A model generated the notes under the pieces. The model was not told where the DNA came from and searched no databases. It was given only the letters and a program-made list of their open reading frames with translations. This document shows positions 27,190 through 41,089 of a DNA stretch of 64,000 nt, piece by piece (position 1 is the first letter of the stretch; each line of letters opens with the position of its first letter). Origin of the DNA: Nannocystales bacterium (GTDB lineage Bacteria; Myxococcota_A; Polyangia; Nannocystales; Nannocystaceae); the NCBI GenBank assembly GCA_050633305.1, contig JBOEGF010000005.1, positions 160,001 to 224,000 on the forward strand, read 5' to 3'. The translations under genes and the position numbers were made by a program.

Positions 27190-28076
27190 TCCACCTCGAA
27201 CTCGAGGACCAACAGGCCGGGAACCTCGCCCGACCGCGCGTGTTCTCGGGCGTCGAACGCGTACAACGTGCCCCCGGAGCGCGCGAGTGCGTCGGTTCCT
27301 TGGAGTGCCGTGGCCTCGAAGTTCACCGCAGCCGCGTCACAGGCCGAAAAAAGCTCGGCGTACACACGGTAGCGGCCTGGCGGTGGTTCGACTTGCCACA
27401 CCACATTCTCCCGGTTGCGCAGGTCCAGCGTGCACTGCTGGTTTGAGTCGTAGTCGTGGTAGCCACCCAGTGTCGCTCCATCGGGCGGCGGCTGGACGCC
27501 GGGTGTGGGCTCGAACGCGTTGATGTTCTTCGCCCCTACGATCACGCCCGAGGGCAGCTCGACATGGAGGTCGAGGTCGACGGGTGCGTCCCAGCCCAAC
27601 GACACCAACAGTTCCGACGGCGGCACATCCGACTGCAGCTCGAACGTTGCGACGGTGATCGCACCGGCTCGGCCATCTTCGTCGACGGCCTGGAGCTCGA
27701 CCTCGAGGGTGTCGGATTCGATCGCGTGGGAGAACTCGAGTTCGGTGCCGAAGAGGAGCTCGTCCGCGATCACGAAGTCGAACCCCGATGGTGCGACTTG
27801 CCAGTGGTTGTCATCGCCGACGCCGTGCACCAGCAGGGACACCCCTCCGGAGCCCAGCCGGCCGCCCAGTTGCACGGTGCCCTCGCCACGACGGACCCCG
27901 ATCTGCGGAGTCAGCACTTGGGTGACCGAGGGACCACCTTGCTGTGGCGGGAGGCCTCCACGCTGCAGCTGAGCCTCGTGGACACGCAGCCGCAGGTCAA
28001 GGCCCATGCCGGGGAGCGAAGGGCTCTCGTTGCACGAGAGCGCCAGCAGAGACAGGGCCGCGGCAAGCCTTTGCAT
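27186..28076 (-). CDS. Lipoprotein with YfaP/DUF2135-like domain
   Basis: ATG 28076 overlaps the upstream stop; LALSC lipobox; LVSLGWDAPVDLDLHVELPSG, ENVVW, PPGRYRV. Confidence 0.7.
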   Translation of the reverse strand: MQRLAAALSLLALSCNESPSLPGMGLDLRLRVHEAQLQRGGLPPQQGGPSVTQVLTPQIGVRRGEGTVQLGGRLGSGGVSLLVHGVGDDNHWQVAPSGFDFVIADELLFGTELEFSHAIESDTLEVELQAVDEDGRAGAITVATFELQSDVPPSELLVSLGWDAPVDLDLHVELPSGVIVGAKNINAFEPTPGVQPPPDGATLGGYHDYDSNQQCTLDLRNRENVVWQVEPPPGRYRVYAELFSACDAAAVNFEATALQGTDALARSGGTLYAFDAREHARSGEVPGLLVLEFEVE

Positions 28077-29650
28077 CAAAACACGACCTCCGCCCGAATG
28101 CGAAACGTGTCGTTGTCGAGCTTGGCGGGGCGGCCGTTCGAGTCTCGGCCGAGGTCGTTGTCGAGCTGCCATTCGTATTCGACGAGCAGCCGGGCCCGGA
28201 TGCGGTCGTCGTGCCGAAGATAGCCCGAGACCCCCGAGGACAAGGTCCGAAAATGCTGCCGGGTGATCACCACCGTTCCGTCGTACGGCTCCAAGGCGTC
28301 GAGGTTGGGCCGGTACTCGTCGTAGCGCACGCCCACTCCCGCATGGCGGGTCAGCGCTTGAACGAACCCGGCATACCATCCGATGCCGCGCTGGTCCCGG
28401 CCGAGCAAGACCGGATCGGCGACGGCGATGCCGCGGTCGACGTTCTGAAGCACCGCGAACTCACCGTACAAGAGCAACGGTCCGAGTTTGGGGATGTCGC
28501 TGCGAAGCTGGACGTCGGTCCCGATCGCCCATCGCTCGAAGTTCTCTGAGGGACGCCCCGCGCTCCCCGGGATCGGGATGAGCTCGGCCACCGTGACGCG
28601 GCCGTCCTCGTTGAGGTCCGTCCACTCGAAGTCGTCTTTGGTCGGAGGCGTGCCCGCCGAGAAGCCCCGTCCCCGTAGGAACGAAAACCCCATCGCGCCA
28701 TCGAGCCACGCGAAGAGGTCTCCACGTAGGTGGAGGCGCCCGACCACATCCTTGCCGCGGTTGGGGTCGCGGAAACCGTAACCGGGGGCACCGGTGGGCT
28801 GCCCGTTGTAGATGCCGACCACCCAGTCCAGCGCCCACACGTGGCCGGAGAGGGACGCGCCCGCATCGAAGACGCCGGGGACCAGCGCGTCCGAGACGAG
28901 TGTCCGCTCGCCAAAGAAGCGACCGCCATCGGTCTCCCCGTACAGCTCATAGCCAAAGGGAACGCGGAGCAGACCCGCGGAGAGTTTCAGCCACGGAGGC
29001 GCACCGTCGGGCGCGGGGAGATGGGCGTGCACGTCGGCGGTCAGCGGACGAACCGCACCCCCCGCGCTGAAGAACTCGGCGACGCCGCGGACACCAAAGT
29101 ACTTCCAGTCCGCCTCTCCGCCGATCCGGGCGTTGCGAAGGAGGAATGCGTTCTCGTTGAGAGGCTCGGACGACCCATCGGAGAGCTGGTCCTCCGAGCG
29201 CTGGCGCAGCAACATGTCGACCTGGACCAAGCCGAACACACGGGTGTGTGGCTTCCAGGACTCGGGGGTCGCTTTCGCAGAAGCAGCGGCCGAGGAAGAC
29301 TCTTCGGGGACCGTTCTGTCCACCTGTGCCGCCGCTGTTTCGGCGTCGGAGGTGGACGCCACGGACGCGCCCGCAGGGGAGACGGTTTCCGCTTCGTCGA
29401 CGGTTTCCGCTGCGTCGACGATTTCCGCTTCGTCGACGGTTTCGATTTCGTCGACGGTTTCGATTTCGTCGACGGTTTCGATTTCGTCGACGGTTTCGAT
29501 TTCGTCGACGGTTTCGATTTCGTCGACGGTTTCGATTTCGTCGACGGTTTCGATTTCGTCGACGGTTTCAGGCGGGGCCGCGTATGCGGCCGCAGGGCGT
29601 CCCAAGACGAACGCGACCGCCAGCGGCCCGAGCCTGAAACCGACGCTCAT
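28076..29650 (-). CDS. Outer-membrane porin (OprO/OprP-like) with acidic N-terminal repeats and EF-hand-like loop
   Basis: Signal peptide; FLLRNARI, GLLRVPFGYE, YNGQ...DPNRGKDVVGRL, C-terminal Phe (RAEVVF). Confidence 0.7.
   Translation of the reverse strand: MSVGFRLGPLAVAFVLGRPAAAYAAPPETVDEIETVDEIETVDEIETVDEIETVDEIETVDEIETVDEIETVDEAEIVDAAETVDEAETVSPAGASVASTSDAETAAAQVDRTVPEESSSAAASAKATPESWKPHTRVFGLVQVDMLLRQRSEDQLSDGSSEPLNENAFLLRNARIGGEADWKYFGVRGVAEFFSAGGAVRPLTADVHAHLPAPDGAPPWLKLSAGLLRVPFGYELYGETDGGRFFGERTLVSDALVPGVFDAGASLSGHVWALDWVVGIYNGQPTGAPGYGFRDPNRGKDVVGRLHLRGDLFAWLDGAMGFSFLRGRGFSAGTPPTKDDFEWTDLNEDGRVTVAELIPIPGSAGRPSENFERWAIGTDVQLRSDIPKLGPLLLYGEFAVLQNVDRGIAVADPVLLGRDQRGIGWYAGFVQALTRHAGVGVRYDEYRPNLDALEPYDGTVVITRQHFRTLSSGVSGYLRHDDRIRARLLVEYEWQLDNDLGRDSNGRPAKLDNDTFRIRAEVVF
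29381..29569. repeat. 18-bp tandem repeat (TTCGTCGACGGTTTCGAT) inside the porin gene, encoding (ETVDEI)7 plus degenerate copies
   Basis: Seven perfect copies and about three diverged copies read directly from the sequence. Confidence 0.95.
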
Positions 29651-29928: not shown

Positions 29929-31158
29929 TCACGCAGGTTCGCAGAATCCAAAGCGACACTCGCCGCCGTTCGTGCACGAGTCACTGTCCGTGCAGCTTTC
30001 GCAGCCACTGTCGACGCCGTTCTCTTCCAAGAAGAAGCAGTCGCACGGGGCGGGGTGCTCGAAGGACGCGATCGGTCCGCCGTCGACCTCGCGAGCCACA
30101 TGCATTGCACAGCTGGGCACGTTGCCCACGCCGATCACGGCTTCAGCTACGCCCACGCCGTCGACTTCGACGGTGCCGGTCATGAGGTCGACAAGCAGCT
30201 GAGCTCGTTCCGCGGATTCAGCTCCGTTGTCGGAGACCGTGTTTCCGTTGGCGTCGGTGCGAAGGATGAACCGGAGGTTCGTCCAGATCGGGTAGTGACC
30301 GTCGCGGACGTTTCGCTTGTCTCGCGATGTGGACGTGGAGTCGGGGAAGACAGCGCCCAGGCAGCCGTTGAAGGGTTCAAACGCGAGCACCCGCATGTTG
30401 TCGGCCGCGGCCTCCCACTTGCTGCTGTTGAGGATGCCGATGACGCTCTCCGCGTTGCCGGTGGTGTTCTCAGCGATGACTGCGTCGCGGACGTCGCTGG
30501 ATCCAGCGTGGTCGCGAAGTGCACCGTTCCACATGGTGCCCGCGATCCCGGAGTTGGCACCGATCGTCAGCTGCGTGCTGGAGCCGGGGTTGCGCACCAG
30601 GACGAAGTTGGGGTCGGTCCAAGGCTCGACCTGACGACCCTCTTCTCCACCGAACTTCAGGATGTAGTAGGCCTCGGTCGCCGTGATGGCGGTTTGCGTG
30701 GAGTTGCGTGGCACCACGAATCCCAGCGTCTCGACGTAGCTGGGGACCTCGAGCAATTCGTCGGGGGGAGTCTCGCCACCCAGACACGTCGCGCCGCCAA
30801 CGTCCATCGCCGAGAGGTCGGAGCGGATCTCCACGTCCGTGGGCATGTTGCAGGAGCCCTGCGCACCGTCGGCCGTGTAGTAGATGGCCGTGCCGGAGAC
30901 GGGCGTCTGCTCTCGCTGGACGTCGTAGCTGATGCACGACGAGAGCGGGAAGTGGACGATCGTCATGGCGTCGTCGCCCATGATGTCCGGGTCGGCCAGC
31001 GCGGGCGAGAGTTCGGCGAGGACCGACTCGAGCAGCGTTGTGGCGGGGAAATAGACGGGGTTGGGCAGCGAGGTGCAGTCGACGGGAGCGCCACCAGACT
31101 GAGGGTCCGAGGGCATTCCGAGGCCAGCCGCCGCCGCAAAAAGAATCGCGGTGAACAT
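29929..31158 (-). CDS. Periplasmic-binding-protein-like (PstS/PBP-fold) secreted protein with Cys-rich tail
   Basis: Signal peptide; VRNPGSSTQ and NVRDGHYPIW resemble PBP_like/PstS motifs (R...SGT, G.YPI). Confidence 0.6.
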   Translation of the reverse strand: MFTAILFAAAAGLGMPSDPQSGGAPVDCTSLPNPVYFPATTLLESVLAELSPALADPDIMGDDAMTIVHFPLSSCISYDVQREQTPVSGTAIYYTADGAQGSCNMPTDVEIRSDLSAMDVGGATCLGGETPPDELLEVPSYVETLGFVVPRNSTQTAITATEAYYILKFGGEEGRQVEPWTDPNFVLVRNPGSSTQLTIGANSGIAGTMWNGALRDHAGSSDVRDAVIAENTTGNAESVIGILNSSKWEAAADNMRVLAFEPFNGCLGAVFPDSTSTSRDKRNVRDGHYPIWTNLRFILRTDANGNTVSDNGAESAERAQLLVDLMTGTVEVDGVGVAEAVIGVGNVPSCAMHVAREVDGGPIASFEHPAPCDCFFLEENGVDSGCESCTDSDSCTNGGECRFGFCEPA

Positions 31159-31336
31159 ACAGAGTCCTACGAGCCGTGCGTCTACCGAGGCCGGTGGCAG
31201 AGCTCAAGAAGGGGCCGTGAAGCGGCACCAAGGGCCCGGTATAGGGCTCGAATCGAGGGTTTCAATGCGGGGGAGTCGTTGCATCGAGTTTTGTCATGCC
31301 TGCGTTTCGTGTCGGGCTGCTGTAGGCTCCGCCGCG

Positions 31337-32266
31337 ATGCGACGTCGGGAATTGCTGCAGAGCCTCGTGGCGGCACCCTGCCTACTGAGTGGGTGCTCCA
31401 AGGGGTCCACATCGCTGCGGTTCTCGGGCATCCCCGACGGCGACAAAGAGGCGCTCAAAGAAGGGTATGCCGCCGTCGCCCGGTACTTGTCATCTGCGTT
31501 GAAGGTTCCTGTTGAGCCGGTGCATGTGCCGGACTACACGGCCGCTGTCACATCGTTGGCATCCGGCGGCATCGACTTTGCTTGGCTCGGCGGCGTGACG
31601 ACGGTTCAAGCCGAGCAGCGGACGCCGGGGGGGGTGCACTTCGTCGCGGCCCGCGAGAGCGACCTCCACTTCAAGAGCTACTTCATCGCAAACGCCAAGG
31701 TCGCGGAGGGAGCCGGTCTGTCTCCGGTCGCGGTGCGTGAGGCCGGGACCCTCGGGGACTTGACCGCCGTGGCGAAGGCCATGAAGGGCAAGCGGTTCAG
31801 CTTCGGCTCGAAGAGCTCGACGTCGGGTCATGTGATGCCGCGGTCGTTCCTCTTGGATCCGTCCGTGGGGGTCGACCCCGAGTCCCACTTTCTCGACGGT
31901 CCCATGTACCAGCGTCAAGGGGGACACGCGGCAACGCTTCGGGCGGTGGCCTCGGGCGCGGTGGACTTCGGGGTGCTGAACTTCGCAAGCTGGGAACGCG
32001 CGGACCCGCAGTTGCAATCCGACGCCCCTGTGGTCGCGGTGACCCCTGAGTATGTCGACTACTGTCTGGTGGCTCGGGGCTCGATGCCTGCGGCCCAGGT
32101 CGATGCGTTGAGGACGGCATTGACCGCGCTCGATGCCGGGGTGCCGGAGCAGGCCGCGGTGTTGGAAGCGTTCGCTGCCAAGGAGTTCGTGAGCGCCGAC
32201 GCGAAGGCATGGGACAGCATCCGCGGCGTCCTCACCAAGCTCGAGGCCGAAGGCGCGCTTCGGTGA
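31337..32266 (+). CDS. PhnD-family ABC substrate-binding lipoprotein resembling the putative selenate clade
   Basis: MRRRELL...LSGC (Tat-like lipoprotein); FSGIPD, DYTAAV, WLGGVTTVQA, FKSYFIAN, FSFGSKSSTSGHVMP, GHAATL. Confidence 0.85.
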   Translation: MRRRELLQSLVAAPCLLSGCSKGSTSLRFSGIPDGDKEALKEGYAAVARYLSSALKVPVEPVHVPDYTAAVTSLASGGIDFAWLGGVTTVQAEQRTPGGVHFVAARESDLHFKSYFIANAKVAEGAGLSPVAVREAGTLGDLTAVAKAMKGKRFSFGSKSSTSGHVMPRSFLLDPSVGVDPESHFLDGPMYQRQGGHAATLRAVASGAVDFGVLNFASWERADPQLQSDAPVVAVTPEYVDYCLVARGSMPAAQVDALRTALTALDAGVPEQAAVLEAFAAKEFVSADAKAWDSIRGVLTKLEAEGALR

Positions 32267-33015
32267 GCCCTGCGGTCGAGCTGGAGAGGGCCTCGGTGCG
32301 CTACCCGGACGGGCGCGGCATCGAGGACCTGACGGCTCGACTCGAGTCCGGACGAACCGTCGCGCTGGTTGGCCCATCGGGGGCCGGAAAGAGCACGCTG
32401 CTGCGGCTCATCGCGGGCGCGGTCGCACCGGATGCTGGCCACGTGCGCACGCTCGGCCAATCTATCGCCCAGTTGCGGGGAGCGTCGTACCGAGCGGCTT
32501 GTGACCGGGTGGGGCTGTTGGCGCAAGCCGACGACCTGGCACCGGGGCTTAGCGTCTTGCACAACGTCTTGGCTGGCCGACTGGGCCGATGGTCGATCGC
32601 GCGGGCCCTCCGCAATCGTGTCTGGCCGCGCACCGATGATCGCCGGGCTGTAGAAGCGGCGTTGGCTGCGGCCGAACTCGCCGATCGCATCGACGCCGAT
32701 CCGTCCGAACTCTCGGGCGGCGAACGGCGCCGCGTCGCGCTGGCTCGGTTGGCGTTTCAGGCCCCGACGATCTGGCTTGCCGACGAGCCCACCACCGGGC
32801 TGGATGTCCGGCTTCGCGGCGACATGATGGACCTGTTGCTGACGATGGTGCGCGGGGCCAAGGCTACGGCGGTCGTTGCCCTGCACGACCTCGAGCTGCT
32901 CCGCTGCGGCTTCGATGAGGTCTGGGGGCTGCGCGGTGGAGGTCTGGAGTTTGCGCTTCCCGCCGAGAAAGTCTCGAAAGCACGGCTTGCGGCGTTGTTT
33001 GGGAGCACGGCATGA
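32263..33015 (+). CDS. ABC ATP-binding subunit (PhnC-like)
   Basis: GPSGAGKS, HNVLAGRLG, LSGGE, LADEP, ALHD; GTG overlaps the upstream stop. Confidence 0.92.
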   Translation: MSPAVELERASVRYPDGRGIEDLTARLESGRTVALVGPSGAGKSTLLRLIAGAVAPDAGHVRTLGQSIAQLRGASYRAACDRVGLLAQADDLAPGLSVLHNVLAGRLGRWSIARALRNRVWPRTDDRRAVEAALAAAELADRIDADPSELSGGERRRVALARLAFQAPTIWLADEPTTGLDVRLRGDMMDLLLTMVRGAKATAVVALHDLELLRCGFDEVWGLRGGGLEFALPAEKVSKARLAALFGSTA

Positions 33016-34595
33016 ACCGAAAGGCCACCGTGGCCGTCGCGGTTGCGGCGGTCACGTTCATCATCGTGCTCTCCCTCGACTTCGGCGTGACGCATCCCGG
33101 GAATGCGCTCGAAGCCGTCGCGTCCCTTCTCGCGGGCATGGGCCAGCCCGACCTTCGTCCGCAGACCTTGCTGCGTGTCTCGGAGCTTGCGGCACAGACG
33201 ATCGCCGTCGCGGTGCTGGGGACCGGGTTGGGTGCTGGGCTCGGTCTGATGTTGGCCATGGTGGGGGCGACTGCCAGTGTCGGAGGCCACCGGGCTCCGG
33301 GGCGCCGAGTCTTGGCAGAGGTGTTGCGGCTGGGGCTCGACGGCCTACGAGCGATTCCCGATTTCGCCTGGGCACTCGCGCTACTCGTGGTGCTGGGCCC
33401 CGGTCCTCTCACCGGAACATTCGCGATCGCGGTGTCCGTGACCGGCATCTTGGGTCGTGCGTTCGGCCAGCTCCTCGAGTCCGTGCCTGAACACAAGGTG
33501 CAAGGAGTTGAGCGCCTGGCCGGGTCACCGATGGCGGCGGTGATTTACGGTCGCCTGCCACACATCGCACCCGCGGCGTGGTCCTACGGTCTGGCGCGCC
33601 TAGAATGCTCGATCCGAAACGCGTCTGTGATCGGAATCGTCGGCGGCGGCGGGCTCGGTGCGGAGCTGTTCGAGGAACTCGGATACGGGCGCATGGATCG
33701 GGTGGCCACGCTGTTGATGGGCCTGGTCATCCTGACGGCGGTAGCCGACGTCGGGTCCGGAATGCTGCGTCGCGGCTTGGGCGGGGTGGGTCTTCGAGCC
33801 CGTCGCTCTGCGCTGCATGCGGCGCTTCTGGTGTCTGCCGCGAGCCTGGCCTGGCTGACTCCCGCGGCGTTCGAGCTCATCGATGCGCTCGCGCGTCTCG
33901 ACCTCCGAGTGGCTGCGGCTTCCGGTGCCCGCCTTCTTCAACCCGACCTCTCGAGACAAACGCTCGGTGAAGTCTTCCGGGGTGTCGGGGCTCCGGTGGG
34001 GCTGGCCTGGCTGTCGATGGGTGCCGCCACTGGCGTCGCGTTGATGTTCCTGCCCTGGACCAGCACGGGGGTCCGGCGACGGGCCCACGGAGTCGCGGCG
34101 TCTGATTCGAGGCTTGCTGTGTTCATCGCGTGGCTGCTGCGGGGATTGGCGCTGCTGGCCCGAGCGGTACCCGAAGTTGCCTGGCTGTTGCTCTTCGCCG
34201 CCGCGCTGGGCATGGGGCCGTTGCCCGCCGTGCTGGCGTTGGGACTGCATGCGTCCGGAATCCTGGTTCGTCTGTTCACCGAAGCGGTGGACGACCGGTT
34301 CGGGACGGCTCCGCACCGGGGCATCGGTGCTGGTGCGGGGGTTGGCTGGCTTGTCTACGCGGCCCTTCCCCGACTGCGTGGCACCCTCGCCACACACACG
34401 GCCCTGCAGGCGGAGTCCAACCTTCGTTCCGCGTTCACACTCGGAATCCTCGGCGCCGGCGGCTTGGGCAACGCGTTTCATAGCGCGATTAGCTACTGGC
34501 AGCTCGAGCGCGCATCGACTCTCGCACTGGGGATGCTGGTGTTGTTTGTCGGGCTCGACCGCGCGGGGCGTCGGTTGTCGCGCCTTGTGGGTTGA
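33012..34595 (+). CDS. ABC permease with two fused PhnE-like domains
   Basis: RAIPDFAWAL...GPGP...RLECSIRNASVIGIVGGGGLG, repeated as RAVPEVAWLL...ESNLRSAFTLGILGAGGLG. Confidence 0.88.
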   Translation: MNRKATVAVAVAAVTFIIVLSLDFGVTHPGNALEAVASLLAGMGQPDLRPQTLLRVSELAAQTIAVAVLGTGLGAGLGLMLAMVGATASVGGHRAPGRRVLAEVLRLGLDGLRAIPDFAWALALLVVLGPGPLTGTFAIAVSVTGILGRAFGQLLESVPEHKVQGVERLAGSPMAAVIYGRLPHIAPAAWSYGLARLECSIRNASVIGIVGGGGLGAELFEELGYGRMDRVATLLMGLVILTAVADVGSGMLRRGLGGVGLRARRSALHAALLVSAASLAWLTPAAFELIDALARLDLRVAAASGARLLQPDLSRQTLGEVFRGVGAPVGLAWLSMGAATGVALMFLPWTSTGVRRRAHGVAASDSRLAVFIAWLLRGLALLARAVPEVAWLLLFAAALGMGPLPAVLALGLHASGILVRLFTEAVDDRFGTAPHRGIGAGAGVGWLVYAALPRLRGTLATHTALQAESNLRSAFTLGILGAGGLGNAFHSAISYWQLERASTLALGMLVLFVGLDRAGRRLSRLVG

Positions 34596-34819: not shown

Positions 34820-36655
34820 CTACGGTGCAAGCAGGCGGTCGATGGTCATGACCATCGCGTCTGCATCGAACTCCCGGCGCAGGTAGGCGATGGTGCCGTC
34901 TCGGTCGACAATGACGTCGAGCGGAAACGGGCTGATCGCATTGTCCGGGTCCGCGTAGTCGAAGTATGTGGTGTCGTCGCGCAGGATCGGAAAGCTGACG
35001 CCGGTTTGACCGACGAACCCGGCCAAGGTGGAGGCGGACTCATTGCCGAACAGGCCAGGGCCGCTGAGGCCCAGCACGACGACTTCGCTTTCGGGGTACT
35101 GCTGGCGGATGCGAGTTTCGAGTTCTGGAAACTCCAGAACGCAGACGGGTCAGAAGGTGGCGAAGTAGGCCAGCACGGCCACCTTTCCTTCGAGGTCCGC
35201 GTGAGTCCAGGTGTTCCCTTCGAGGTCTCGCAGCGCGAAGGACGGGGCAGGGTCGCCGACGGCAAGTCCGGGGACGTTCGCGGTCAGGGGGACTTCGAGG
35301 CGAGGTTCGTCGGGGTCGTCGCTGCAGACCCGAATCGCGCTTTGGAGCGACGCGGATGAACCCGGGCTGAGCTGGACTTCGACTGCTTTGGAGCGACCTG
35401 GTTCGACGACGAAGCACGTCTCGTCCACCGTGACGTCGGCGGACCCTGTCACATCGTGGACCGTCAGCGGGCGGGTGCCGCTGTTGGAGATGAGCAAGAC
35501 GCGGGCATCTGAGTCCGATGGTTGAACGTTGCCGAACTGCAGTGAGCTCGGGCTGAGGTCGACCTCGGGTCCTGCTGAGGCGCTGTAGGCGAATGCGTGG
35601 AGGCCGGTCCACTCTCCGCCAAACACCCTGGCCCGTGCTGCGACAGCGCCGACGGCCAGGACCCGGGAGAAGCTGTCGTCGGTGGGGACGGTCTCCGAGA
35701 ACAGGGAAACCGGGTCGGCGGGTTCGGTGAAGTCGTAGCCGCGCAAAGAGTCCCATTGCGCGACGACGATCTGTCGGGGACCCAGCAAGGCCACATCGAG
35801 CGCGGTTCCCGAGACGGGTTGCTCGGCCAGGAGAGCGGCTGCGCTGGTGTCGGCGACGTCCACGATGCTGATACCACTGGAGGTGACGACGTACGCCCTG
35901 TCGTCCTCGAGCAGCACATCGTGACTCGAGCCCTGAAGCGCTACGGTGGAGAGCAATCGGGGGTCGCGCTCCGACACGTCGAACAGGCGCAGACCGGAGC
36001 CTCCATCGGCCAGCGCGAGCAGGTCGTCCCGCAAGACGGGCTGCCATGCGTCGGTGCCTTCCTCCACCACTCGACCGGTCTCGACCACGTCTCCGTCGGC
36101 AAGCTCCAGCGCGACCAGACCATGTCCGTGCAGGGCGGCGAAGATCCGGTTCCCCCGAATCGCGACACCTTCGATCGAGCCCGAGACTGGACTCCAGCTG
36201 CCGAGGAGTTGTGGCCGACTCGGATCCGCGAGGTTGTAGATCGCGAGCCACGGGGTCGGCTGAACTTCATCTCCGCGGTTGGTGATGACGACCCGGGAGG
36301 TGTCAGGATCGAAGCCGACATGCTGGCAACGGGGAAACTGGCTGTTGGAGAGGCCGGCGCCCGGAGAGACGCGTTCGACCAACAGTTGTGGGACCTCTTG
36401 GGATGTGTCGAAGACCGAGAATCCTCGCACTCCGCTGCAGACGAGGGCGAGGTCGCCGTGGGCGAGGATGTCGGTGATCTCGAAGAAGGTGTTCGTGTTG
36501 GCGCGACCCAGGTGTTGCAAGGGGTCGACGGTCGCTCCGGGCGAGGTTGGGCACCCAGGCCGGGCCGCAGACCGACACAGAGCTGGGGCGGCGGGGTCGG
36601 GCTCGACGGCACAGCCGACCAGAGCGAAGAGCGACAGCAGGGTTCGGGCGTTCAT
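34820..36655 (-). CDS. Selenoprotein B: lipoprotein with LVIVD-repeat propeller + Ig-like domain + C-terminal UxxC redoxin (TlpA/AhpC-TSA-like); Sec codon TGA at 35152-35150; 611 aa
   Basis: ORFs 35150..36655 and 34820..35077 share a frame; read-through gives ...VAVLAYFATF-U-PVCVLEFPELETRIRQQYPESEVVVLGLS...ISPFPLDVIVDRDG; LVGC lipobox; downstream hairpin. Confidence 0.88.
35122..35140 (-). promoter_or_regulatory. Bacterial SECIS-like stem-loop of selenoprotein B
   Basis: mRNA: UGA + 9 nt + GUUCUGGA-GUU-UCCAGAAC (8-bp perfect stem, G-first loop 17 nt after UGA). Confidence 0.8.
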
Positions 36656-38580
36656 TCGTCGAGCAGCTGTTGAAGGGTGGTGTCCATGGCCTCGACGTCG
36701 AACTCGCGACGTAGGTACCGAATGGTTCCCGTGCGGTCCAAGATGACGTCGAGGGGGTAGGGGGAAATGGCGGCGTCGGAGAATGCAAGTTGACCCCGAG
36801 TCGTGTCCTGCATCAACAGTGGAAACGTGACCTGTGTCTGTTCGCGAAACGCGGACACGGTCGACTCTGATTCACCGCCGAACAGACCCGCGCCGGACAT
36901 GCCGAGCACGACCAGGTCGTCGCGGTGGTTGTAGCGCTGCCAGAGCTTGGTCTCGATGTCTGGAAACTCCAGACTGCAGACGGGTCAGAAGGTGGCGAAG
37001 TACGCCAGGAGGACGACCTTCCCCTCGAGGTCGGCGCGTGTCCAATCGTTGCCGTCGATGTCCTGCAGCATGAAGTCCGGCATCGGATCTCCGATGTCGG
37101 CCCCCGCTGCATTGCCATTGAATCGCAGCTCGTACTCGGGCTCGTCCGGGTCGTCGGTCTGCAACAGAAGCGAGCCGGAGGTGACGTCGTCAGAGTCCGG
37201 GGCGAACCGGAGCTCCAGGGCGTGCACACCTCCGGGGTCGACGGTGAAACACGCGTCGTCGACGGAAACGGTGTCGCGCTCCGTGGTGTACCCGTAGACG
37301 TTGAGCGGCTGGTCGCCTTCGTTGCGGACCACCACGACGCGGTCTTCGGTGTCCCCTGCTTCGATACGTCCAAACTGGACCGAGGCCGGGGCAGCCGCGA
37401 TCTCCGGCCCGGTGGCGCGAGCTTGGCTCTCGAACATGTGCATCCCGGTCCACTCGCCCGCGTACAGGCGCGGCATCTCCGGGTGGGGGGCGAGCGTCAG
37501 GACGCGAGAGAAGTCGTCTCCGGTTGGCACGACCTCCGACCACACGCGGGTGAGCTCGTTCGGTTCGTACGCCCGGACCTCGTCCCACTCGGCGCTGTAC
37601 ACGAGGCCGTTTGCGCCCAGTGCGATGGCGACCGAGGTGCCCGCGGCGGGAGCCTGGGCGGCGACGGCAGGCACCGATGGATCGGTGACGTCGAGTCGAA
37701 CGACGGAGGACGACGCGGCGACGTAGAGGGCATCGTCGTCGAGGACCAAGTCTCGACTCGAGCCGCCGAGTGCCAGCGTGCTGAGCAGGACAGGGTCGTC
37801 GCCCGAGACGTCGTACACCCGAACACCGGTCGCGCCTTCGGCGACGTAGAGGAGGCCGCCCGCGAAGACAGGGAGCCAAGCGTCCGACGCGTCGTCGGCG
37901 AACGAACCCACCTGTTCGAGCACTTCGCCGCCGGTGTCTTCGAATACGAGCACGCCAGCTGTGTGCGCGGCTGCGAAGATTCGGTCTCCGTCCCACACCA
38001 CGCCCTCGATGGACGCATCACCCGTCCACCCGCGCAGGGCGATCGGCTCTTCACGATCTTCGACGTTGTACACGTGCAGCCAAGGCTGGGGCTGAACCTC
38101 GTCACCCCGGTTGGTGATCGCGGCTCGCCGTCCTTCGGCGTCGAGGGCAACGTGTTGGCAGCGCGGGAACTGCCGGTTGGAAACCCCCGGCGGTCCGATG
38201 CGGGCGGAGACCAATGTGCCTGCGTCGTTGGAAACGTCCCACGTCATCATGCCCTGGGTGGCGGTGCAGCCGTAGACCAGCTCGCCCCGAGCTTCGAGGT
38301 CGAGGATCTCAATGAAGGTGCCGCTCTCGGCGCGGCCGCGGTGCACGAGTCCGTCGACGGTGGTGATGGGATCGGGGGCTGGACAAGCGGGTGGTGCGTC
38401 GCCACTGCTGTCGTCGGCCCCGGAGCTTCCGGTCATTCCGCCGGTCTGCGGGGTACTCGTTGCGGGGCTCGTGTCGCTTGGGCGGTCTGTACCTCCCACC
38501 GGCGCGGCGTTGCCGTCGCTGGGCCCTTGGCAGCCCGCCGCGGCGGCGCCGAGGACCGCGCTCAACACTCCAAAACGCAT
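36652..38580 (-). CDS. Selenoprotein A: paralogous lipoprotein with LVIVD propeller + Ig-like domain + UxxC redoxin; Sec codon TGA at 36987-36985; about 642 aa
   Basis: ORFs 36985..38592 and 36652..36909 share a frame; read-through gives ...VVLLAYFATF-U-PVCSLEFPDIETKLWQRYNHRDDLVVLGMS...ISPYPLDVILDRTG; AAGC lipobox; final stop overlaps the ATG of gene B. Confidence 0.88.
36958..36974 (-). promoter_or_regulatory. Bacterial SECIS-like stem-loop of selenoprotein A
   Basis: mRNA: UGA + 10 nt + GUCUGGA-GUU-UCCAGAC (7-bp perfect stem; same loop and same loop distance as copy B). Confidence 0.8.
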
Positions 38581-38699
38581 GTTGCTGAGCAATACGGGGT
38601 CGGAGGACCCAGGTTACGTCGGGAGGGAGGACACCCGTACAGGTGCTCCAGTTCCCCAGTCCCTTGGGGCGGCCGGCCTGGCTCGCTACTGTGGTGCAG

Positions 38700-39488
38700 A
38701 TGAGAAGGACCTCCGTGGGCCTCGCCCTTGTCGTGGCCGCTGCGCCTTCGTGGGCCCTGGCGAAAGACCCCCCGCCCAAGCCGCTTCGAGCCTCGCTCGA
38801 GGTCGAGGCGGGTGAGGCCGAGGACGGCAAGGAACTCGAGGAACGCGTGAACACGGCGCTCGGAGCTCGACTCCGCAAAGCCGAAGTGTTGCCACGAAAA
38901 TCGTTGGAGGATGGCCTCATCCACGTGGAGGTGAGCCCGCTGCCCGATGGCGACGGTTACCACTACGACGTCTACGCAGAGCAGGCGGACCGAACGCTCG
39001 CAGAGACGAAGACCGAGGCCGACTGTGCGGGGTGTGATGAGGCGGCCCTGCTCGAGGCCATCGGGGTGGCCGTCGACAAGTGTCTGCCTCCGCTGGCGGC
39101 GAGCGTCGCCGAGGCGGTGGTTGAGCCCGAGGAACCCCCTGCGGCATCTGTGGCGGTCACGCCCGTGCAGAGCTCCCCGTCCGACGAGGACCGCCGGGCA
39201 GGACCGCTGGGAAAAGCTGGCATCGGGCTGATGGTTGCGGGCGCCGCGACAGCCGTGGTTGGGGTCATCTTCGTTGTGAACGGGCGTTCGTTTGACACCC
39301 GCCCCGGCGCGCTGGAGCAGGAAGGGGTCGATTTTCGCCCGCCAGGCTTCGCGTTGCTGGCCGGCGGCGTGGCGACGTTGATCACAGGAGGTGTCCTGTA
39401 CGGAGTCGACCGCAAGCGGCGGAAAAGGAAGGCCAGCGTGTCGTGGATCCCCGGGGGTGCGGCGGCGTCGATCGGAGGGCGATTCTAG
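38700..39488 (+). CDS. Hypothetical exported protein with C-terminal hydrophobic helices
   Basis: Signal peptide, CAGC, two Gly-rich hydrophobic segments, C-terminal GGRF typical of myxobacterial PEGA/TPR-associated proteins. Confidence 0.7.
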   Translation: MRRTSVGLALVVAAAPSWALAKDPPPKPLRASLEVEAGEAEDGKELEERVNTALGARLRKAEVLPRKSLEDGLIHVEVSPLPDGDGYHYDVYAEQADRTLAETKTEADCAGCDEAALLEAIGVAVDKCLPPLAASVAEAVVEPEEPPAASVAVTPVQSSPSDEDRRAGPLGKAGIGLMVAGAATAVVGVIFVVNGRSFDTRPGALEQEGVDFRPPGFALLAGGVATLITGGVLYGVDRKRRKRKASVSWIPGGAAASIGGRF

Positions 39489-41089
39489 TGGCTCACTCCC
39501 GCCTCTTGGTGTTCGGCGCGGTGTTGCTCGCGATGGCCGCAGGCTGCCCCTTCTCTTTCACCAACGACGACCACTGCGCGGCCCAGGCTGGCGACGCGAC
39601 CTGTGCAGCCGCGAACGCGGCGACCCCGTACTGCGCGCTCGATGGGTGCGGGCTGTATGACGAGGCCGACAACATCAGCGGGTGCGTGGCCGAGCTACCC
39701 ACCGACCTGTCCTGCTACAGCCCGTGTGGCGGCAAGCAAGACGCCAACGCACAGAGCGACTGCGATGCGCCCGCGACGGAGGCGACCAGCGTCTCCTCGT
39801 CGTCGGACACAGATACGCTGACGTCCGGATCCGCTTCGACCGACGCATCGGGCACCGAGACGGACTCGTGCGCGTGCGAGGGCGACACGCCGATCTGCGT
39901 GGATGGGGAGTGTGTGGCCTGTGTCGACGATGACGCCTGTGCCCAGGCGGGGCTGCCATCGATCTGCGATGACGGACGATGTGTCGAATGCCAGCCGATG
40001 CAGGCAGACATCGCCGCGGAGGACGAATCGATAGACGGCCGTCAGTCGTATCACCAGGGCTGCTCCATCAGCGCACCGAACTGCAACACGGGTGCTTGTG
40101 TCGGGCAGTGTTTGTTCCACGACGATTGTCCTGGGAGCGGCTGTGACTTCTCGACCGGACTGTGCGGTCCCCTCGACACGCGCTTCTACGTCGACGAGAC
40201 CGCGGGTGCCGATGACCCGGAGGCTTCGGGCTCCCAAGGAGCGCCGTTTGCGACGGTCGGGTTCGCAGTCGAGCGCGTCGCGGAGGCCTCCGGCATGGGG
40301 ACGGCGATCGTGACCGTGGTCGTGTCCGAGGGGAACTACCTTGGCCCGATTGAGACCGGCGCTCGAACTGTGATCGTCATCGCCGACCCCGACGGGGACA
40401 GGCCTCAGTTCAGCGCCCCGGACGAAACGGCGGACGCGGATCCTGTCTTTGTGGTCGACGCCGACAACGCTGTCCTGTCCTTGGGCAGCGTTCGTGTCGC
40501 GAACTCGGAGCTCGTTGTTCGTGTCGCGTCGACCGGGCAGTTCTTCGGCGACGGCGTGGAGATGGTGGACAACAACTCCGCCGTGCGGCTGGAGGGGGCG
40601 GCGGGATTCGTGCGGAACTCGTTGGTGACGGGGAGCTCGGAGCCTCCCTTCGTCCTCGCGCCGAATGGTGAGCTTGGGGTCATCACGACGACCATCGTGG
40701 AGAATGCAGCGACGATTCTGTTCGAGTGCGAGGACCCAAAGGAGTTCAACCGAATCTCCCTGGCATACAGCATCGCTGGTCAGTTCGATCCTCTGCCCAA
40801 GGGGTGGTCCGTGCTCAGCCCATCGTGCGCGTTTGCTCCCGGGTATCCGGTGATCGAGGACAACGCGGTGGAGGTCGTGCCCGGTGAGGACTCGTTCGCG
40901 ACGGGCACGTTGTTCCGCCTCGACACCAACGCCTCAGAGGCCTACCGGGCCGACGAGCGGCCGGAGGCCTGTGCCGAGGGAACGCCGACCGTGGATGAGG
41001 GCTTCCTGCTGCCGTGCCCTCCGGACCGAGACGTCGACGGTGTCTTGCGGCCCGACGCGTACTGGCGAGGGTTCAGCGCAAACCCGTAA
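39488..41089 (+). CDS. Cys-rich lipoprotein with DUF1565/beta-helix-like C-terminal domain
   Basis: AAGC lipobox; Cys repeats; FYVD...GSQGAPFATVGFAV...VSEGNY is a DUF1565-like start of a beta-helix. Confidence 0.7.
   Translation: MAHSRLLVFGAVLLAMAAGCPFSFTNDDHCAAQAGDATCAAANAATPYCALDGCGLYDEADNISGCVAELPTDLSCYSPCGGKQDANAQSDCDAPATEATSVSSSSDTDTLTSGSASTDASGTETDSCACEGDTPICVDGECVACVDDDACAQAGLPSICDDGRCVECQPMQADIAAEDESIDGRQSYHQGCSISAPNCNTGACVGQCLFHDDCPGSGCDFSTGLCGPLDTRFYVDETAGADDPEASGSQGAPFATVGFAVERVAEASGMGTAIVTVVVSEGNYLGPIETGARTVIVIADPDGDRPQFSAPDETADADPVFVVDADNAVLSLGSVRVANSELVVRVASTGQFFGDGVEMVDNNSAVRLEGAAGFVRNSLVTGSSEPPFVLAPNGELGVITTTIVENAATILFECEDPKEFNRISLAYSIAGQFDPLPKGWSVLSPSCAFAPGYPVIEDNAVEVVPGEDSFATGTLFRLDTNASEAYRADERPEACAEGTPTVDEGFLLPCPPDRDVDGVLRPDAYWRGFSANP

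Follow-up and report, generated by a model that had tools for sequence, protein, structure and literature searches.

SECIS-type hairpins behind the in-frame UGA codons of two tandem propeller-redoxin genes in a Nannocystales bacterium

Bacterial SECIS elements, UxxC redoxins and the A/B locus

In bacteria, UGA is decoded as selenocysteine (Sec) when SelB loaded with Sec-tRNA binds a hairpin, the selenocysteine insertion sequence (SECIS), a mechanism established for bacteria (PMC13188914). The consensus of Zhang and Gladyshev (2005), as given in Fig. 2A of PMC13188914, places this hairpin within the coding sequence, directly behind the UGA, with a stem of 4-16 bp, a loop of 3-9 nt, a G in the first two loop positions within N1-G-[G/U]-N-N2 where N1 and N2 are paired, a UGA-loop spacing of 16-37 nt and an energy of -7.5 kcal/mol or better; the same source notes that some SECIS elements fall outside it. 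Here we analyzed a 64,000-nt stretch of a Nannocystales bacterium (GCA_050633305.1, contig JBOEGF010000005.1, positions 160,001 to 224,000; the window, in whose numbering positions are given), in which two tandem genes, A and B, each carry an in-frame TGA followed by a hairpin. In Escherichia coli, SelB-GTP-Sec-tRNA binds such a hairpin and delivers Sec when the UGA reaches the A site, and the loop of the fdhF SECIS reads A-GGUC-U. Judged from sequence, the A and B hairpins are very probably canonical bacterial SECIS elements within selenoprotein coding sequence, with the UGA read as Sec. The genes and their in-frame TGA codons are as follows.

36652..38580, minus strand: gene A, with a lipoprotein-like N-terminus, beta-propeller, Ig-like domain and AhpC-TSA/redoxin domain with F-U-P-V-C
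Domain limits of gene A (P0001 numbering): beta-propeller ~80-390, Ig-like ~395-494, AhpC-TSA/redoxin 500-634
34820..36655, minus strand: gene B, tandem paralog of A, 611 residues, same architecture, TAG stop
36985..36987, minus strand: in-frame TGA of gene A, predicted Sec U536 of P0001, first position of U-x-x-C
35150..35152, minus strand: in-frame TGA of gene B, predicted Sec U502 of P0002

The genes are 47% identical and overlap by four bases, A's terminal TGA overlapping B's ATG. Gene A starts at the ATG that matches database protein P0003; an in-frame TTG lies at 38592, and counted from this upstream TTG the gene, read through, has 646 residues. Each gene holds a single in-frame TGA, within the peptide Y-F-A-T-F-U-P-V-C in both, at the position that aligns with the Cys of CxxC redoxins from the same genome. 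The reading frame runs 99-116 residues further and completes the redoxin domain. We consider it very improbable that translation truly ends at the TGA or that the genes share a nonsense mutation, with a propeller-Ig product only, or that the codon is read as Trp or Cys without SelB. Fifty-nine of 60 database homologs do end just before the TGA, under names such as 'hypothetical' or 'choice-of-anchor D domain-containing protein', but a break there would split the Pfam domain at its catalytic Cys, the residues downstream are conserved among homologs, and full-length Cys forms exist, one of them named 'redoxin domain-containing protein'. Nor is the code globally changed, since TGA is the ordinary stop of 53 of the 104 genes with a readable end; the only tRNA with a TCA anticodon in the host genome is tRNA-Sec.

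The host has the required selA, selB, selC and selD. Its tRNA-Sec scores 67 bits over cut-off, and selB, present in one copy, selA and selD exceed their curated cut-offs, with selD carrying a TGA of its own. The host SelB ends in a winged-helix domain (SelB-wing_3, E 1.6e-16) that aligns with the C-termini of solved SelB proteins.

At the protein level, the closest catalogued UxxC selenoprotein families are the Prx-like thiol:disulfide oxidoreductase (PF00578), the Redoxin family protein (PF08534) and the thiol-disulfide isomerase-like family (cd02966) (Table 1 of PMC13188914). A and B share the UxxC motif and the Pfam domains of the first two over cut-off; Pfam detects an Ig-like domain, followed by an AhpC-TSA/Redoxin domain (57 and 53.5 bits against a cut-off of 26) in which the TGA takes the place of the first catalytic Cys. 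A and B carry in addition a putative lipoprotein signal, a beta-propeller of LVIVD-type repeats and the Ig-like domain, an architecture named in no row of that 119-family table, which gives domains and motifs only. No NCBIfam model covers the whole protein, and a loose custom pattern finds a lipobox-like motif in 48 of 60 homologs. In the AlphaFold model (mean pLDDT 84), ~310 residues of repeated beta strands match G-beta-type propellers, and many homologs carry repeats of PF08309, which we take to be the LVIVD repeat.

The C-terminal domain also resembles ResA and TlpA: its best NCBIfam match is PRK03147 (E 2e-14, far below cut-off), and it shares C-x-x-C-x-x-E and a later Pro at the cis-Pro position, residues with established roles in those proteins. 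The differences are the predicted Sec for the first Cys, and a predicted lipid anchor, propeller and Ig-like domain rather than a single membrane helix. No cytochrome c maturation genes were found nearby. Membership of ResA or TlpA was rejected on NCBIfam score, at 54 bits against 170 for ResA and 26 against 230 for TlpA.

The hairpins and their conservation across homologs

The hairpins, and two features that bear on how they are read, are the following.

35122..35140, minus strand: predicted SECIS hairpin behind the gene B UGA, stem of 8 bp, with the loop G at 35132
36958..36974, minus strand: predicted SECIS hairpin behind the gene A UGA, stem of 7 bp, with the loop G (36967) as base 18 downstream of that codon
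35141..35167, minus strand: 27-nt block identical to 36976-37002, codons of Y-F-A-T-F-U-P-V-C, outside the stem and not in the covarying structure
36652..36654, minus strand: terminal stop TGA of gene A, without a SECIS-like hairpin downstream, an internal negative control within the gene pair

The TGA of gene B is followed by 9 nt, the stem arm GUUCUGGA, a GUU loop beginning after 17 nt (35132) and the stem arm UCCAGAAC. A preliminary description of this DNA had quoted the sequences and spacing of both hairpins correctly and had seen a perfect stem around a GUU loop in each. This holds for gene B (8 bp); in gene A the stem has 7 bp, its outermost pair being an unpaired A·A where B has G-C. 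The compensatory pair it reported, U-A in B and G-C in A, is real and alters the amino acids (V/S and E/D). Both loops read A-G-U-U-U, of 3 nt or, if the A-U pair opens, 5 nt, and the bare hairpins have energies of -8.6 (A) and -9.5 (B) kcal/mol. They thereby agree with every item of the consensus as that figure gives it: position, loop, 7-8 bp stem, A-G-U-U-U, a spacing of 16-17 nt and energy. Rfam gave no match within the window.

The codons UUU and CCA, which the same description had called unusual, are indeed so genome-wide (16% of Phe and 9% of Pro codons). With the peptide held fixed and synonymous codons redrawn, the stability of the observed hairpin was equalled by 0 of 1000 draws for gene B and by 2 of 1000 for gene A. 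The A and B hairpins exceed chance once the peptide is fixed and across homologs. The 27-nt identity across the TGA, also put forward as a mark of selection on the hairpin, proved a different matter. The identity is real, beginning 15 nt upstream of the TGA and reaching 9 nt past it, and between residues -5 and +8 all 13 identical residues share the same codon in A and B, compared with 49% in the rest of the gene. This block is not what signals the hairpin, because it stops where the stem begins and codons +1 to +3 differ synonymously among family members (CCC 57/CCG 47; TGC 81/TGT 42). As evidence for the hairpin we therefore rejected it.

We surveyed the family by searching an 18-row alignment against 401 sampled genomes of the phylum (E 1e-40), of which 63 matched, all of them selA-positive. 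A single-protein search found a match in 17 of 72 genomes of the family, and a single-protein scan of species genomes found two loci only. The closest named relatives are Nannocystaceae and Myxococcota assemblies. Family members number up to five per genome. From the fetched loci we took 141 redoxin-domain sites and removed seven neighbouring ordinary TlpA-like genes, leaving 134 family sites, 123 with TGA and 11 with a Cys codon. A metagenome scan yielded five loci, Cys forms only, and could return nothing else because its search pattern ended in Cys. A profile search against 1.84 billion representatives was dominated by repeat proteins and yields no estimate of family size. At L026/L036 (G011:C170), the match of a family member runs in two frames ahead of the redoxin domain with TGA and hairpin intact, a frameshift or an assembly error.

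A hairpin follows the TGA at 120 of the 123 sites, at -7.5 kcal/mol or better at 99, and a second Cys stands at +3 in all 123. The 18th base after the codon is G at 123/123 TGA sites versus 4/11 Cys forms. A test set beforehand, whether the hairpin is equally kept in Cys homologs, favours SECIS: the in-register stem is present at none of the 11 Cys sites, and the hairpins that fold at four of them are weak and out of register (-5.9 to 0). Of 31 terminal TGA stops of the family genes, 3 are followed by a hairpin at least as stable as -7.5 kcal/mol and none by the loop motif. In a five-member Cys clade, sister to a Sec clade (support 98), stem and E-F-P were lost together. The Cys forms are losses at single genes, because all seven genomes that hold one have selA. 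Three of the 11 are poor members, two without the second Cys and one a weak long-branch match. In L113 and L116, both with a Cys codon, similarity breaks right after F-C-P-M-A-W, without a second Cys; they are possibly degenerate or a separate subfamily. Overall, selA was found in 76 of 79 family-bearing genomes, including all 62 of those at least 90% complete, against 247/401 in the phylum sample.

Covariation was measured on the 90 distinct sites with the window's register; 28 further distinct sites were set aside because their stem is shifted by one base around GGUC. Among the 90, 90% of cells are paired and five of the seven pairs show double changes (74 cells). The covariation score was 0.402, reached by none of 500 shuffles, and slid controls stayed at or below 0.084. 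On a FastTree tree built with the stem peptide masked, which carries a long-branch warning, the two stem arms change nearly together: 10 and 8 changes by side and 10 for the pair at pair 11/25, and 16 and 17 by side and 19 for the pair at pair 10/26. The shifted register belongs to a clade of 29 rows (L106, L117, L118 and 26 further loci; support 99) with the loop GGUC, the stem moved one base and the peptide P-S-E-V-S-D, in which six pairs are kept in 27-29 of 29 and the loop G is still at +18. The five loop letters take seven forms within the family.

The pairing reaches into the protein sequence. Amino acids +4 and +9 change pairwise with the helix preserved (S/D, V/E, N/D, A/E), and codon choice follows the stem: Phe+7 is UUU in 43/43 (flanks 18%), Leu+7 is UUG or UUA in 34/34 (flanks 10%), Pro+8 is CCA in 62/88 (flanks 7%) and Glu+6 is GAG in 120/120 (flanks 84%). 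With the peptide fixed and synonymous codons drawn at random, the observed stem reached p ≤0.05 at 109 of 123 sites. The earlier proposal that selection acts on the RNA structure is thus well supported, because the stem covaries, forces rare codons and is kept in register by no Cys form.

Several points weigh against reading the hairpins as SECIS elements. Single hairpins are unexceptional against dinucleotide shuffles (z -0.92 and -1.09 over 53 nt, in a GC-rich genome). The outermost pair is open in 53 of the 90 sites, and the 28 sites left out of the covariation set were chosen by the very feature at issue, the register. By a strict count, 24 of the 123 Sec sites fall short of -7.5 kcal/mol and three lack a contiguous 4-bp stem. 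No selA match was obtained in three of the genomes that carry the family, which are 71-83% complete. No conserved gene neighbour was found across 73 family loci, whose flanks are short (mostly 1.5 kb). Finally, the homologs are related, so the counts overstate independent events; they describe a pattern and are not p-values, because kin are not independent.

The z values of only about -1 would also suit a stem that arises incidentally, either from conservation of the peptide together with GC-rich codon bias or from conversion between the two tandem genes. The identical 27 nt, made mostly of preferred codons, could reflect such conversion. We find this account barely credible. It is contradicted by the fixed-peptide recoding, the stem needing rare codons rather than preferred ones; the paired amino-acid changes at +4/+9 keep the base pairing; the stem is found in many genomes and families besides the tandem pair; and a Cys form that keeps E-F (L154) uses UUC and has no stem.

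The class of the element and other selenoprotein genes of the host

The preliminary description had gone on to propose a lineage-specific SECIS consensus, and to suggest that scanning the genome for a fixed TGA-stem-GTT-stem motif would find further selenoproteins. Neither proposal held. At the proposed offset the fixed motif follows 12 TGAs, which does not exceed the 2-12 counted for other offsets. With a coding frame required on both sides, 4 of the 12 remain, against none at every other offset; the scan misses the other selenoproteins because these four in-frame sites are three family genes and one redoxin. The third family member, on contig C18, has a TGA followed by a different stem (CCGGGA/UCCCGG) with the same loop at the same distance.

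A distinct, lineage-specific class (stem-GUU-stem) served by a SelB of altered specificity is, in our assessment, unlikely. It would account for the G-A-G-U-U that the host's three family genes and an unrelated redoxin gene share at the same offset, and for GAGU at 74/123 family sites, and the review cited above allows for SECIS elements outside the consensus. But the hairpins satisfy each constraint of the published model as summarized there, the shared GAG is a Glu codon, and the family itself holds seven loop forms and a 29-site clade with the one-base-shifted stem around GGUC. The host's one selB must also serve the loops of its other selenoprotein genes (GGUC, GGUCU, GUC, GGU, AGUUG, CGGGC and GGC), whose G follows after 17-21 nt. 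Because the Glu codon of C-x-x-E supplies the loop G as its third base, the element is much the same from one family member to the next yet differs from those of other selenoprotein genes. The conserved hairpin sequence belongs to this gene family, not to the lineage.

Read as canonical SECIS elements, the hairpins show no defining difference from the consensus as that review presents it; what characterizes the family is the fixed spacing of the loop G and the two stem registers. They share with the E. coli fdhF element a short upper stem ~10-11 nt after the UGA and a G-containing loop, and the 29-site clade has A-GGUC-U itself. The window hairpins differ from it in their A-GUU-U loop and, as folded, in having no bulged U.

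Other TGA genes of the host match selenoprotein-containing families, namely glutathione peroxidase, AhpD-like, DsbA-like, SelL-related and other redoxins. Eight further genes were located (G000; C20:61257, C10:198930, C5:271923, C43:106110, C24:25172, C32:274059, C12:126089 and C4:134092), comprising four redoxin/SelL-related genes, a glutathione peroxidase, a DsbA-like lipoprotein, an AhpD-like gene and SelD. Counting the three family genes and two other candidates, the host total comes to ~13 in a non-exhaustive search. L161 (G000:C62:18718-18727, minus strand) encodes a ResA/TlpA domain of the Cys type fused to an HMA-like domain whose U-M-G-U motif contains two TGAs; the sequence behind these TGAs folds into hairpins, and it is a possible double selenoprotein. 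At L162 (G000:C8:312065-312068, minus strand), a CheA-like kinase ORF ends in TGA-TGA with an 8-bp hairpin behind it; this is most likely a true stop because only 30 residues follow.

Predicted product, neighbouring genes and significance

We propose that the host SelB with Sec-tRNA would bind the A and B hairpins and recode the UGA, and that read-through would yield full-length, lipid-anchored, exported proteins. Sec would be the attacking residue of a TlpA/ResA-like thiol-disulfide oxidoreductase; the propeller may bind or present the substrate, with the Ig domain as a spacer. The role of the protein is less certain than the recoding: we lean towards an exported, lipid-anchored oxidoreductase of the TlpA/ResA kind, with Sec attacking and the propeller as the substrate-binding module, and a peroxidase role is the main alternative.

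Around the pair, a PhnD/PhnC/PhnE-like ABC transporter at 31151-34595 (plus strand) is convergent with gene B. The best NCBIfam match of its binding protein is TIGR04553, a putative selenate ABC transporter substrate-binding protein, at 196.8 bits against a cut-off of 250. Among the 73 family loci, with flanks mostly of 1.5 kb, this ABC transporter was seen beside family genes only at this genome's own loci. Upstream of gene A and divergent from it, two ORFs without an NCBIfam match occupy 38643-41089 (plus strand); both recur at this position in two congeneric genomes, and the first ORF in a third too. A tandem repeat at ~29390-29530 (minus strand) codes E-I-E-T-V-D about seven times. The repeat lies either upstream of the ORF at 28076-29650 or within its N-terminal extension; this ORF matches no NCBIfam model.

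Literature searches found no paper on the propeller-Ig-redoxin selenoprotein architecture and none combining 'LVIVD' and 'selenoprotein'. The architecture is also unnamed in the available passages of BSepDB, deep-Sep, Peng 2016, the Olavius paper and an archaeal review; the BSepDB tables and the supplements could list such genes under a generic redoxin name. As far as these searches reach, the propeller-Ig-redoxin selenoprotein family is likely new, and that it is uncatalogued seems to us reasonably probable. The SECIS itself and the domain and motif (PF00578/PF08534, UxxC) are known types, and the understanding of Sec insertion is unchanged because the RNA element is of a known type.

The analysis exposes a common myxobacterial selenoprotein family whose redox domain is invisible in protein databases because its members are annotated as truncated proteins. 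It also provides 123 naturally occurring SECIS variants, all at the same fixed position and covering seven loops, two registers, an invariant G and Cys revertants without the stem. This set is unusually clean for asking what SelB requires, and it is a clear case of amino-acid covariation made by RNA pairing rather than protein contact. A wider reading, which we regard as doubtful, would make these genes a family of exported selenoenzymes that spans the phylum and is uncatalogued, with the peptide behind the active site dictated by the SECIS and the UGA acting as a selenium switch. If true, low selenium would give an anchored propeller-Ig protein without the redox domain, and selenium would give the full enzyme.

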